Positions 52,387 through 56,504 of a stretch of 64,000 bases of DNA are shown piece by piece. Numbering within the stretch: position 1 is the stretch's first letter; each line of letters begins with the position of its first letter. The stretch lies in contig OX597834.1 in assembly GCA_951406725.2 (NCBI GenBank), positions 43,834,001 to 43,898,000 of the forward strand. Direction: 5' to 3'. This stretch comes from Octopus vulgaris. Taxonomy: Eukaryota. The notes below the pieces were generated by a model that had not been told where the DNA came from, ran no database searches, and worked only from the letters and a program-made list of their open reading frames with translations. The position numbers and the translations under genes are program-made.

Positions 52387-52953
52387 TGTCTGTCCATCTA
52401 TCAGTCTTTTTGCCTATCTGTCTAACCATCTGTGTCTCTGTGTATCTCCCTCTCTGTCTGTCTGTCTGTCTCCTTTCCCCCCTCACTCTCCCTTTCTCCC
52501 TCTCCCTTCTTCGAATAATGTTTCTCTTCGTTCATTAAAAATGATATTGCCCGAAAAAGCACCATCTTTTCGCCAATGTCCTCATCCTTTGATGCTACCC
52601 ATCAGCGAAAGATATACGCAAGCGCAAGACAGACACACGCGTGGGCACTACCTACTTAGCAGCATATCTTTTATCTTTTAATTGCTCCAGTTATTTGATT
52701 ACGGCCATGCTGGGGTAGAGCACTTTTAGTCGAACTAATCGAGCATAGTACATAATTTCCTTTTTAAGCCCGGCAGTATTCTATCGGTCTCTTTTGCCGA
52801 ACCACTAAATTATGAGGACACCAACATGGGCTGTGAAGTGGTGGGGGGAACAACCACATACACATAAATATACATATATATTCTTTATGTTTGACCACTG
52901 AACTCAACAGGGTTTTTTTTTGTATTCTCCCTCAGTTTATTTTCTCTTATTCC

Positions 52954-52987
52954 TTTCTGCTGAAGTGCGTAGTCTCGAAACGTAAAA
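52954..52987 (+). ncRNA. Degenerate hammerhead motif (family with 54735 and 55499)
   Basis: TTT|CTGCTGA|A GTGC-GTAG-TCTC|GAAAC GTA|AAA. Confidence 0.55.
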
Positions 52988-54734
52988 TACCTTTCCATTT
53001 TCCCCAAGCGTCAAACTAATACATGTCTTCATGTTTGTTATTCTATAAAATTGAATCATATACATATATATATTCTTTTATTCTATCATTTGTTTCGACA
53101 AAGAAGAAGAAGAAGAAGAAGAAGAAGAAGAAGAAGAAGAAGAAGAGGAGGAGAAGTAATGTCAATAATAAATAAATAATAATGAATAAATAGAAATATG
53201 AATAACAAAATAAAAGTAGAACGACAGAGATGGGAAGGGAGGGAGAAAGAAAGAAAGAATGAATGAACTAAAGGAAAGAAGGAAGGAAGGAAGGAAGGAA
53301 AGAAGAGAAAGAAAGAATAAAAGAAAGAAAGAAAGAAAGAGAGAAAGAAAGAAAGAAAGAAAGAAAGAAAGAAAGAAAGAAAGAAAGTACTAAACGAAGG
53401 ACGGGAGGAAGGTAGGAAGGAAGAAAGAGAAGGTGGTGAGAGACAGCAATGGTGACAAGCTACGGAGGTATATTCGACATATATACTGGTGGTTCCAAAT
53501 TTTGACAGGAATTTTACCAGATACCAGCATCGTAGCATCCAATGTCTTTGCGTGCATCCAATATGCAAGAGGCTGTGAGCTTCCGGCCAATAGTCGATAC
53601 GAAACCTATGGTAACATTCTGACCCCATTATATATCATAACCAGTAATGTACTCTTCCATGTTATGAATATATACACACGCAGTCACGCACACACTTTGA
53701 CACACACACACATGCATGCATGCATATGTATGTATTAGCACAAATTTTTATCATATAGATTATATACATCTTTCAGTGTATATATATACATAAATATATT
53801 TATTTATATGTACACATACATACATGTATATATGTGTAGGTGTATATATATATATATATATATATGTATATAGAGAGAGAGGGAGAAGGGAGAGAGAGAG
53901 GCGGAAGAGAGAGAGGAGAGAAAGAGAAAGATATAGATATATATATATTTATATATATGTATACATACATACATGTATATATATATGTGTGTGTGTGTGT
54001 GTGTACATATATATATATACATATATAATACTATGCATGTGTATATATACATATATATTATGTACAAGCACGCACACATACATACATACACATACATACA
54101 TATGTGTGTGTATGTGCGCGTGCATTATATATTATGTATTATATGTGAATGTATGTCCGCATGCATGTATGTGTATGTGTGGGGGGGAGTGGAGTTGAGT
54201 GTAATAAATGGCAGGAAGTAGCCATCATGAAAGAAAGTTAGAACTGATACGTGGAGTAAATTAATCGCTAAACCTATTTAGACCAACGTTAAAGCTTAGC
54301 TCTTGGGATTTCTTCCGTGGACTGATAACAGCACTGTAATAATTCTACAAATAAATAGAGAGCGAGAGTAAAGGGGAGAGAGAGAGAGAGAGGGGAAGAG
54401 AGAGAGACTGACAGACAGACACACACGGACATACACATGGATACACACACAGACACACGAACGCGCGCATGCACACACACGGGTGCAGGTACGCACACGC
54501 AGGCACACACTCATTCACATTGTCATTCATACAACAATACAAGGTAAAACGGATATATTCCATACATATTTATCTATGGACACACAGACACACACACACA
54601 CACACACACACACACACACACACACACACAGACACACACACACTCATATATATATATATGTTCTATCATTTTCGCCATGATAGATCTCTAGCCACTACAC
54701 ATTCTTTATTTTCTCTCCTTGTTTCTTTCTGTGT

Positions 54735-54773
54735 TCTTTTCTGCCGAAGAGCGTAGGCTCAAAATGTTAAAGA
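54735..54773 (+). ncRNA. Degenerate hammerhead motif
   Basis: TCTTTT|CTGCCGA|A GAGC-GTAG-GCTC|AAAAT GTT|AAAGA; stems intact, core mutated. Confidence 0.5.
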
Positions 54774-55498
54774 CTTTTTCACTTCCTGGACGTTATACTA
54801 ATACATCTGTTTGTTGTCTACACCACCTGTCTTCGTCTTTTTTGTGTGAATTCTCCTTATACATACATACATATATATATATATATATATATATATATAT
54901 ATATATATATATATATATATATATATATATATATATATATATATATATATATATACATACATACACATATGTATATATACATATACATATATATATATAT
55001 ATGTGTGTGTTTATGTATGTTTGTATTTATATATATATATTATACATATATATATATATATATGTATATATAGAAATACATACATACATATATATATATA
55101 TATATATATATATATATATATATATATATACCTTATAAATTCATTCGTAGCTGAAGCCATGAACACATAGATATGCACGCAATCTTAAACACATGTTGTA
55201 ACGTTCATCGTCATATGTAGAGGACGTTTTCTATACAAGCATGCAAAAACTCTGAAACTCATGTAGAACAACATATAACCACAAAGATTTACTCACATAC
55301 GCATGTATTCATAAATACGTATTCGTGTATGTGTATACATATATACATATATATATGCATTCATAGGTATACACTTATATGTATGTACGCATGCATGTAT
55401 CTAGTTGTCTATCTATCTATTTATATATATATATATATATATATATATATATATATATATATATATATATATATATATATATATATTTCCTTCTCCTT

Positions 55499-55533
55499 GT
55501 TTCCGACGAAGAGCTCCGCTCGAAACGTTAAAC
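55499..55533 (+). ncRNA. Minimal hammerhead ribozyme motif
   Basis: GTTT|CCGACGA|A GAGC-TCC-GCTC|GAAAC GTT|AAAC; all three stems intact, palindromic AACGTT, U4 replaced by C. Confidence 0.72.
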
Positions 55534-56504
55534 CCTCCTTCCCTTCTTTCCTGAGCGTCAATAATACTTTAATTGTTCCACGTCCTCGCGTTGCTGTGTT
55601 TTTTTTCTGTGTTTTCTTGTTTGGATTAACTATATATATATAACATATACATACATACATATATATATATATATATATACATATATATATATATATAACA
55701 TATACATACATACATATATATATATATATATATATATATATATATATATATATATATATATGATTCTGCAATTATATGTATACGCACAACTATTACATAT
55801 CATACATACACACATGCATGCGTATACATCTACATATGCACGCACAGATACACACATTTTATACGCATAGACGTATACATAGAGAGAGAGAGAGAGAGAG
55901 AGAGAGGGGGGAGGGTGAAGCAGGGAGGCACACGTATTATACAGGATATCATTTCAAGTGGCTTTTAAACCAACACCTGGGAAATGTTAATATACAGAAA
56001 GTAATAAAGACGAACTTACATTGACAGTAAGATAATATAATTTAATAAAACTACTACTACTGCTGCTGCTGCTGCTGCTGCTGCGACCACTGTCATTGTT
56101 GCTACTCATACAAGCACTCACCAAGACTAGCACTCTGATTACGAAAATCACTTCCACTACTACCCCTCCCCCAACAACTTCCTTCCACACCACTATATCA
56201 TCAACACTACTGCTACCAACACCACCACGATCAACACTACCACTTCCCCACTGCAAGCAACCACCGCCTTTACAGCTAATCACGAATTCTACCGCCTTCA
56301 GTATAACTTGAACAACTCCCTAGCTATCTCTTACCCTTCTTTTTTTCGATGTTCTGTGATTATTTACACATGTCTCTGAACTCTGATTAGAAGGTTTCCA
56401 TCTGCGACCATCACTGTTGCTTTTCCATTGATGCCTTCATTATTTCCCTCAACAGCGTGGCCGATGAACTCACATTACCGTGAGGAGGAAAGTATCATAA
56501 ATAA

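Follow-up and report, generated by a model that had tools for sequence, protein, structure and literature searches.

Hammerhead-bearing fragments between (TA)n tracts in an Octopus vulgaris window: probable truncated ends of Penelope-like elements

Introduction

A stretch of 64,000 nucleotides of the Octopus vulgaris genome (assembly GCA_951406725.2, contig OX597834.1, positions 43,834,001 to 43,898,000), which we refer to as the window, contains three short sequences, c1, c2 and c3, and the question that they raise is what kind of element they represent: a preliminary description had proposed a family of SINE-sized, non-tRNA, ribozyme-headed retroelements, mobilised by a Penelope-like element (PLE) that prefers (TA)n targets. 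Our analysis upholds the three copies as related, TA-flanked and hammerhead-bearing, but not as one discrete ribozyme-headed SINE; instead, they are probably 5'-truncated, 3'-terminal (pLTR) fragments of endonuclease-positive, hammerhead-bearing PLEs of at least two families. PLE debris in (TA)n is ordinary, and its anatomy has already been published; for annotation, such ends are easily labelled as unclassified SINEs, and are missed by Rfam. Positions are those of the window; features are located on its forward strand unless the reverse strand is indicated, and microsatellites have no strand.

Results and discussion

Relationship of the three copies

The three sequences are located at 52887 to 53057 (c1, 171 bp), 54670 to 54858 (c2, 189 bp) and 55487 to 55630 (c3, 144 bp), as single copies with unrelated DNA between them, and TA-rich tracts flank each one, as had been described. 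c1 is read as a PLE-type terminal fragment with a U-rich leader and a decayed hammerhead; c2, a 5'-truncated copy from a family of very high copy number, is followed by a TA-rich microsatellite (54859 to 55130) and is separated from the (TA)n tract on its 5' side by 10 nt (54660 to 54669) that lie outside the family homology, the depth in run X1 being about 550 in these 10 nt and over 127,000 from position 54670 on; c3 is located directly at (TA)n on both ends, i.e. at the (TA)n tract at 55422 to 55486 and at the TA-rich microsatellite at 55631 to 55761.

The kinship of the copies has been borne out for each pair, by similarity above all 500 shuffles: the local alignment scores are 64 (c1-c2), 38 (c1-c3) and 34 (c2-c3), against shuffle maxima of 32, 30 and 33, the c2-c3 pair being marginal, and c1 and c2 have 74.7% identity over 75 nt (E 3e-8). 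The claim of a single family fails, with at least two families present: c1 is a sister subfamily of c2, while c3 is related yet separate, since its core reads CCGACGA and that of the c2 family CUGUNGA.

The hammerhead fold

All three copies can be parsed as minimal type I hammerheads, decayed in c1 and c2, and none of the three carries the canonical active core (C3 U4 G5 A6 N7 G8 A9 / G12 A13 A14 / A15.1-U16.1 / H17); the departures are C6 in c1, C6 and A12 in c2, U6 in the c2 family and C4 in c3. The GAGC/GCTC stem II that had been described as common to the copies is intact in c2 and c3, but two of its four pairs are broken in c1. The substitutions A6C and U4C are natural hammerhead variants, and slower ones (PMC3088659, PMC7151607).

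The c1 hammerhead (52954 to 52987) has the core CUGCUGA, with C at position 6, an extra A, the GAAA-CG-UA segment and a 3-bp stem I; its stem II is absent from the minimum free energy fold of c1, and the motif is probably inactive. The c2 hammerhead (54737 to 54772) has C3 at 54741, N7 at 54745, a 4-bp stem II at 54749-54760, H17 at 54768 and a 4-bp stem I; in this copy, position 6 (54744) is C and G12 (54761) is A, and, to judge from its letters, the copy is dead through G12A. The decay changes G12A and C15.2U of c2 are both located at CpG sites. The c3 hammerhead (55499 to 55533), with the core CCGACGA (U4C, canonical A6), the GAAA-CG-UU segment and 4-bp stems I and II, is the sole predicted intact minimal type I fold of the three. 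Cofolded dimers reach -11.9, -21.2 and -22.1 kcal/mol against twice-monomer values of -6.8, -14.8 and -14.4 kcal/mol, a comparison that stands without a shuffled control, and a MAFFT alignment of six motifs placed the cores out of register.

That pyrimidine-rich islands between microsatellites mimic a hammerhead by chance is scarcely credible. Such an explanation could draw on the simple-repeat content of the window (27.7%), on a noisy relaxed core scan (24 rows, mostly noise) and on the silence of Rfam, which gave no hammerhead for the window among 150 of 432 matches listed, nearly all of them microsatellite-driven miRNA noise, and none for c3 alone, even at E<=10; it is opposed by the shuffle tests, by covariation in stem I, where c3 has G-C at the C-G position of the c2 family, and by the number of related contigs and the confined variation of the fold in the c2 family.

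The abundant c2 family

The comparison of c2 (231-base query) with the contigs of four public runs has matched 8186, 12510, 8032 and 2794 contigs, i.e. thousands of variant contigs per run, which are not copy counts; contigs cannot reveal ends or strand. At core position 6, where the canonical base is A, U accounts for 94-98% of the c2-family depth, and the 36-nt fold of the family is polymorphic only at N7 (all four bases) and at H17 (A or U); because U6 is dominant and variation is confined to these two positions, the fold looks selected. The U6 core is expected to cut poorly. Lunse et al. are said to have described PLE hammerhead variants, which may include position-6 variants; PLE hammerhead cleavage is slow in vitro, and it is dispensable for insertion in the sole reconstituted PLE.

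One reading of this pattern, which we hold to be decidedly unlikely, is that the c2 family is a hugely amplified short retroelement, non-autonomous and dependent on a PLE, which favours a start some 70 nt ahead of its hammerhead and whose master copies became fixed for U6 with both stems and all other core bases retained. Selection would then preserve the fold for binding a protein or positioning the RT, or as a ribozyme switched by a protein or a metal, and not as an ordinary self-cleaver; if true, such an element would offer a test in nature of whether cutting is required of PLE hammerheads. A U6 family with thousands of contigs is a substrate for testing the role of the fold apart from cleavage, and descriptors that require CUGA miss such families, so that genome hammerhead counts may be underestimates. 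The c2 family may already be part of the repeat library of PMC13282606 (Zenodo).

Ends of the copies

The hammerhead has an internal position in all copies, with 16-71 nt on its 5' side and 73-101 nt on its 3' side: c3 starts 16 nt upstream of C3, and c1 and c2 start 70-71 nt upstream of it, while from H17 to the 3' end there are 73 nt in c1, 90 nt in c2 and 101 nt in c3. With neither end at the cut site, the term "ribozyme-headed" had to be dropped. A true ribozyme-headed SINE, with self-cleavage of the hammerhead creating its 5' end as in the R2-derived SIDEs, would fit the short length, the hammerhead fold and the dispersed copies, but it is very improbable, given that the whole hammerhead is kept together with the sequence upstream of C3, and that none of the three copies starts at H17. 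The non-tRNA origin agrees with the 0 genes found by ARAGORN; the search for pol III heads on the + strand gave no A box and one-mismatch B-like words only, in a weak test where the controls fared little better.

In the c2 family, the 3' end adjoins (TA)n, while the 5' ends vary and many contigs run on upstream, at odds with the idea of a SINE-sized discrete family. In each of the four runs, the top class of loose ends lies behind 54841 (189, 284, 178 and 50 contigs), and the top class at the 5' edge lies before 54671 (111, 119, 80 and 31 contigs), counts that, like those of the joints, refer to the top rows listed, with 807 loose-end and 13 joint rows besides. Behind 54841, run X8 reads TATATAT after the element end (agreement 0.65), while poly-T indels obscure this junction in the remaining three runs; past 54671, contigs run into one shared non-microsatellite sequence, and this upstream continuation is unmatched elsewhere in the window at <=3 mismatches. 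Among 10 joints listed, a TA-rich flank joins the element at differing 5' points in four (three in run X3 from near 54680, one in run X1 about 34 nt before C3); go-back joints within the family, one contig each, lead from 54843 to 54710 and from 54839 to 54791. The depth at 54798-54821 is 2-3 times the leader depth in all four runs, a gradient that may also stem from private changes of c2 and from edge effects. No common start or end emerges from the contig listing, contigs being weak for such ends, and no contig covers c2 with both flanks. As contigs continue upstream into shared sequence and the 5' TA junctions vary, c2 appears to be a 5'-truncated piece of something longer; the family has the character of random-length fragments at its 5' end, but not at its 3' end.

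These ends also bear on an unlikely alternative, a weaker form of the earlier proposal, in which the c2 family is non-autonomous and depends on a PLE (as a solo-pLTR derivative or a dispersed retrozyme-like monomer): a PLE that targets (TA)n would move a non-coding master RNA of a few hundred nt in trans, and this element would itself frequently be 5'-truncated, with a preferred start some 70 nt ahead of the hammerhead. A very abundant family for which no ORF has been seen is consistent with such an element, a passenger RNA could tolerate the non-canonical U6 core, and the like starts of c1 and c2, together with 32 contigs of run X1 that have AT-rich loose ends at 54672, make a preferred 5' stop or start possible; non-autonomous PLE derivatives are reported from Chlamydomonas in the part of PMC8557442 considered, and have been proposed for animal retrozymes (bioRxiv 10.64898/2026.07.22.740005). 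Against these 32 contigs, however, stand the 111 of run X1 that go past 54671; moreover, c3 starts at its own, shorter distance from C3, other junctions differ, an exact pol III box is absent from the + strand of c1-c3, and truncated autonomous PLEs give the same anatomy without an extra assumption.

The direct repeats around c1

The direct repeats that had been described around c1 are present: a left 19-bp repeat (52868 to 52886) and a right copy with one extra TA unit (53058 to 53078). TTCTTT is rare after TA runs, occurring at 3 of 714 run ends on both strands, two of which bracket c1, and the 19-bp repeat is a credible target-site duplication. In a contig of run X1, the leader follows directly after TA-rich DNA, with 23 of 27 letters as in c1 (hand count). 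The left repeat also makes up the TA-rich tail of a dispersed repeat of unrelated sequence, which extends over about 52667-52870.

Adjacency to (TA)n and other hammerhead motifs

A (TA)n tract on one side is nothing unusual in the window, where a dispersed repeat of unrelated sequence also has it at 9 of its 12 copies. Two-sided adjacency is above background: of 7 hammerhead anchors, 4 have (TA)>=4 within 125 nt on both sides, a situation found at 5.3% of random non-simple positions. Likewise, 5 of 7 hammerhead elements have both ends <=30 nt from (TA)>=4, as compared with 2 of 38 copies of control repeats, the figure for the hammerhead elements being partly circular because the ends of three of them were taken from the tracts.

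The motifs at 13.5 and 59 kb, which had been noted for their closeness to (TA)n, do adjoin it, but they lack significant likeness to c1-c3 and represent further families. The first is a separate hammerhead fragment on the reverse strand (13450 to 13566, 5' limit approximate), with the core CCGAUGA at 13557, a palindromic CAGCUG in helix III and its 3' end directly at (TA)17. A separate family at 59187 to 59410 consists of an inverted truncated copy joined to a forward copy, which runs on unpaired for 73 nt at its 3' end; the whole is flanked by (TA)n at either end, gives a self-inverted match of 93% over 161 nt and has no meaningful BLAST match to c1-c3. The fragment at 59465 to 59654, between (TA)n tracts, carries a decayed hammerhead-like motif and has a 13-nt helix III motif in common with the 13.5 kb fragment (a score reached by 5 of 500 shuffles). 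When the motifs h13 and h59b are compared with c1-c3, between 67 and 438 of 500 shuffles score as high or higher, so that neither motif is significantly similar. The hammerhead at 18384 has a canonical core, and the nearest (TA)>=4 tract is more than 800 nt away; five other TA-bounded islands gave no convincing core in a relaxed scan, with one AT-rich match at 59675-59950.

Proposed origin

The mobilisation by a PLE with (TA)n preference that had been proposed is supported by the fold, by the 3' end at (TA)n and by the 5' truncation; as no autonomous partner has been found, the PLE membership of the copies rests on the RNA motif and the insertion anatomy. If the copies are truncated PLE ends, a GIY-YIG endonuclease would nick AT-rich or (TA)n DNA, and reverse transcription, as published biochemistry suggests, would start on uncleaved RNA from one constant internal position some 75-100 nt past the cut site, which would set the 3' end beside (TA)n. 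That copying halts early, in many cases no more than about 70 nt beyond the hammerhead on its upstream side, is shown by the variable 5' junctions, some of which have ATA in common with the target; the staggered target would be duplicated or split, leaving TA on both sides (with the duplication seen for c1), and the inserted copies would decay afterwards.

Our best guess for the partner is the Neptune clade. Among the 150 longest of the 180 complex ORFs of the window, none matched an RT or GIY-YIG domain in Pfam, the matches in five proteins all being under the curated cut-offs; the upstream continuation of the c2 family is known for only 30 nt, and so may be non-coding. Pattern scans gave no match in metagenome contigs or in prokaryote genomes, and the searchable supplementary files of PMC8557442 and PMC4209133 contain no matching element. 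In viral contigs, the sole match of one scan was rejected as chance, inside an unrelated open frame, and a second scan gave none.

Comparison with known systems

Animal non-LTR retrozymes are short, non-coding elements with type I hammerheads, kin to PLE pLTRs, and also occur as dispersed monomers (PMC7229834; bioRxiv 10.64898/2026.07.22.740005). They have tandem units, canonical or active hammerheads and circular RNAs, whereas the copies described here are single, truncated, minimal folds in (TA)n; c1-c3 form no head-to-tail hammerhead units, and the go-back joints are isolated.

The minimal hammerheads of metazoan PLE pLTRs are mostly single motifs, probably from truncated PLEs (Cervera and de la Pena 2014, PMC4209133), and our copies resemble their consensus in the U-rich leader, the 3-4 bp helix I, the extra nucleotide after A9, the G10.1-C11.1 pair, the palindromic C-G at 15.2/16.2 and the lack of a real helix III. 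The 4-bp stem II is near-identical to that of the Acropora digitifera Neptune motif (PMC4209133 Fig. S3). In the part of that figure considered (56 motifs by its legend), which includes no cephalopod, the motifs have A6 and U4, bases that the descriptor largely enforced, whereas the c2 family carries U6 and c3 carries C4.

According to the part of Craig et al. 2021 (PMC8557442) considered, the EN+ PLEs Neptune and Naiad have (TA)n targets, heavy 5' truncation and partial tandems, which the go-back joints of the c2 family may resemble; the "inverted copy plus tail" layout found there is matched at 59187-59410, in another family. Naiads are an unlikely partner, as canonical hammerheads are absent from them in the same part of the source.

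Lastly, the Anolis Poseidon element PAc has its RT start at 111-118 nt and its cut 26 nt into the ORF, with uncleaved RNA as the main substrate (Frangieh et al. 2024, PMC11167929). PAc inserts into AT-rich DNA in general, whereas the target here is (TA)n, and the PAc ORF begins at stem II, where c2 and c3 have no family ATG; the 3' end of PAc is located 85-92 nt downstream of the cut site (PMC11167929), as compared with 73-101 nt in the three octopus copies.

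Identity and setting of the hammerhead-bearing copies

The three short hammerhead-bearing copies c1 (52887-53057), c2 (54670-54858) and c3 (55487-55630), all on the forward strand, are, together with the hammerhead-type motifs at 13.5 and 59 kb, a real feature: they are most likely truncated ends of Penelope-like elements (PLEs) lying in (TA)n and coming from several families, with a hammerhead fold, a fixed 3' end, several 5' ends, an upstream continuation and one target-site duplication being directly observed. The window is DNA of animal type whose repeat landscape resembles that of octopus genomes. 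Simple repeats occupy 27.7% of it and pure (TA)≥4 tracts 6.8%; several families of dispersed repeats are present, and ARAGORN has found no tRNA genes in the window. Between 50 and 60% of the words sampled from 52600-55700 occur in public sequencing runs under three species labels.

The relatedness of the copies, proposed in the preliminary description, is confirmed by a similarity above that of 500 of 500 shuffles for each pair (barely so for c2-c3, at 34 against a shuffle maximum of 33; c1 and c2 are 74.7% identical across 75 nt). All three parse as a minimal type I hammerhead. Stem II, described as GAGC..GCTC, is intact in c2 (core CUGCCGA, with A in place of G12 and U at 15.2) and in c3 (core CCGACGA, 4-bp stem II, GAAA-CG-UU, stem I of 4 bp), but two of its four pairs are broken in c1 (core CUGCUGA).

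Target site and (TA)n adjacency

The direct repeat that had been seen to bracket c1 is real: TTCTTT follows only 3 of the 714 TA-run ends in the window and two of these three flank c1, so the repeat is read as a target-site duplication that lies where an unrelated repeat ends in a TA-rich tail.

From G12 of the seven hammerhead anchors, the next downstream (TA)≥4 tract is located at 87, 110, 109, 79, 901, 82 and 130 nt, i.e. within 125 nt for five of the seven (18% of random non-simple positions), while a tract within 125 nt on each side is found for 4/7 (5.3% of random non-simple positions); the hammerhead at 18384 is an exception, with its nearest tract more than 800 nt away. A tract is found no more than 30 nt from each end in 5/7 hammerhead elements, against 2/12, 0/13, 0/2 and 0/11 copies of the control repeats (BLAST hits spanning at least half of the query, shorter hits being excluded); when 60 nt are allowed, the same applies to 4/13 copies of the second control family. 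This two-sided comparison is in part circular, since c3 and both 59 kb elements had their ends taken from the tract limits and since tract position helped the elements to be noticed. One-sided adjacency also occurs in 9 of the 12 copies of the first control repeat and is not distinctive for hammerhead elements.

Abundance and ends of the c2 family

The c2 family has been compiled from the contigs of four public runs that align on c2 with 80% likeness over 231 bases (8186, 12510, 8032 and 2794 contigs). A chance resemblance to the hammerhead, with which the lack of an Rfam hammerhead for c3 alone and among the 150 listed of 432 window matches would agree, is excluded, as each run contains thousands of such contigs. 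In run X1, the summed contig depth, which is not a copy number, is about 0.5-1.5 million over most of the element (8-19 for single long pieces, about 550 for the 5' flank); we would put the family at between thousands and tens of thousands of copies.

The loose ends and joints considered here are the top entries of longer lists (with a further 807 and 13, respectively). Among the loose ends listed, the most numerous class of every run is the one behind 54841, a place of indels private to c2; in run X8 it reads the final element bases and then TATATAT (agreement 0.65), being blurred in the other runs, and therefore the 3' end of the family is defined and adjoins (TA)n. Upstream of 54671, 111, 119, 80 and 31 contigs of the four runs continue into one common non-microsatellite sequence; c2 is therefore a truncated copy of some longer unit, and the discrete SINE-sized family of the preliminary description is not upheld. 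Further 5' ends, among those listed, are found in run X3, where three contigs join TA-rich DNA to the element near 54680 (the element there reads ATA), and in X1, where one contig, whose leader resembles that of c1, has its junction with TA-rich DNA about 34 nt before C3, and the loose ends of at least 32 contigs at 54672 are AT-rich. Depth over the 3' part is 2-3 times that of the leader in all four runs, a gradient that is compatible with 5' truncation and that c2's own changes could bias.

Both c1 and c2 start 70-71 nt ahead of C3, and of the upstream continuation only 30 nt are known; these points would suit a non-autonomous unit that depends on a PLE and has a preferred 5' end, a reading of the c2 family that we consider rather improbable. 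A SINE whose head is generated by hammerhead self-cleavage is contradicted, since none of the three copies begins at the cleavage position H17; the term "ribozyme-headed" is accordingly dropped. Non-LTR retrozymes have also been rejected, being tandem units that yield circular RNAs (PMC7229834), whereas c1-c3 are single copies.

Variation in the ribozyme core

Across the 36-position fold (54737-54772), at six sites 10% or more of depth has a letter other than that of c2; four of these (54737, 54744, 54761 and 54765) are departures of c2 from the family letter (80-98%), with the changes at 54761 and 54765 being of the CpG-decay type. The substitution G12A is expected to kill a hammerhead, and the c2 copy should be inactivated by it. 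Only two fold sites are truly polymorphic: 54745 (N7), with all four bases at 10-36% each, of which A and G are not attributable to CpG decay, and 54768 (H17), with A or U and never G at the 10% threshold; both are core positions left free by the hammerhead consensus. This restriction, together with the stem I pair that is C-G in the c2 family and G-C in c3, would support the view that the source elements were under selection for the fold, as a post hoc pattern of two sites.

At position 6, U makes up 95, 94, 97 and 98% of depth in the four runs, and A does not reach the 10% threshold. The variant A6C occurs naturally and has low activity in Mg2+ (PMC3088659; PMC7151607), and we have found no natural hammerhead family with U6 in the literature, including the available portions of PMC7151607 and of the Fig. 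S3 list of PMC4209133, a weak absence because Lunse et al., the likeliest source of such variants, lies outside the search scope. The U6 core and the possible favoured 5' end are the most notable points of the analysis.

Other motifs and TA-bounded islands

The motifs at 13.5 kb (13450-13566, reverse strand) and 59 kb (59187-59410 and 59465-59654), which the preliminary description also places close to (TA)n, are real motifs of hammerhead type that belong to other families, and one is decayed. In the element at 59187-59410, the inverted arm holds a hammerhead (C3 at 59253, reverse strand) with a stem I of 4 bp, a helix III of 4 bp that is nearly palindromic and, flanked by A's, a stem II of only 2 bp; the forward arm has a 5-nt deletion at this place. 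The TA-bounded island at 59675-59959, with inverted arms at about 59676-59718 and 59820-59862 (by eye), is probably another inverted insertion of a PLE. In all, 59187-59959 contains three such islands in direct succession, a pattern suggesting that one (TA)n tract was hit by repeated insertion. The element at 18381-18482 (forward strand) has no (TA)n flank; its hammerhead, which begins 3 nt into it, combines the canonical core CUGAUGA with a stem II of 6 bp. The element sits in a duplication of about 16300-16960 and 17990-18640, in whose 16.7 kb copy a GA-rich stretch takes its place.

Further islands, non-repetitive and 130-200 nt long, lie between TA-type tracts at 15057-15220 (a 10-bp hairpin, then GAAA), 40985-41130, 46031-46170 and 55131-55330; a relaxed scan has found no hammerhead core in these four, which may have arisen by decay from the ends of other elements that target TA. 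Identical 203-nt copies (19358-19560 and 21202-21404) stand immediately after (TA)n within a second local duplication, and 10709-11198 is a minisatellite, rich in pyrimidines and repeating about every 94-103 nt. Among the longest 150 of the 180 complex ORFs of the window, Pfam gives no RT or GIY-YIG ORF; a weak zf-RVT match below the cut-off (60410-60625, forward strand, E 0.0012) is probably a LINE remnant.

Comparison with known Penelope-like elements

PLEs are already known in octopus, where PMC13282606 reports 31 Penelope-like families with recent activity, along with 893 SINE families left unclassified; the excerpted text of PMC8967140 notes Penelope expansions with no mention of ribozymes, and 235 Rfam hammerheads are given for the giant squid (PMC6962438). 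Our search of the octopus and cephalopod literature on Penelope and hammerheads, to which the repeat library of PMC13282606 is external, has found no description of these ends; PMC6765202 and PMC12602865 offer, in the text available, general background only.

The proposed mobilisation by a (TA)n-preferring PLE holds as the best reading: the fold, the fixed 3' end, the (TA)n and the target-site duplication fit PLEs, so that the mobilising partner of c1-c3 would be a PLE, whose endonuclease would nick the target and whose reverse transcription would begin at an internal site of the RNA. PLEs are described as strongly truncated at the 5' end and as preferring (TA)n, and as forming partial tandems and inverted copies that carry tails (PMC8557442), the last of these layouts being directly seen in the element at 59187-59410, and most PLE insertions carry one terminal repeat only (preprint 10.64898/2026.07.22.740005). 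Metazoan genomes each contain hundreds to thousands of PLE-type hammerheads, which mostly stand alone and are attributed to truncated PLEs (PMC4209133); the fold of c1-c3 matches their minimal consensus, the pyrimidine-rich leader of the preliminary description corresponding to its U-rich leader, while U4C of c3 is also known from a viroid hammerhead (PMC3088659). In the reconstituted anole PLE, AT-rich DNA is nicked and reverse transcription then starts on uncleaved RNA, 85-92 nt downstream of the cut site (PMC11167929); the 3' ends of c1, c2 and c3 are located 73, 90 and 101 nt downstream of theirs.
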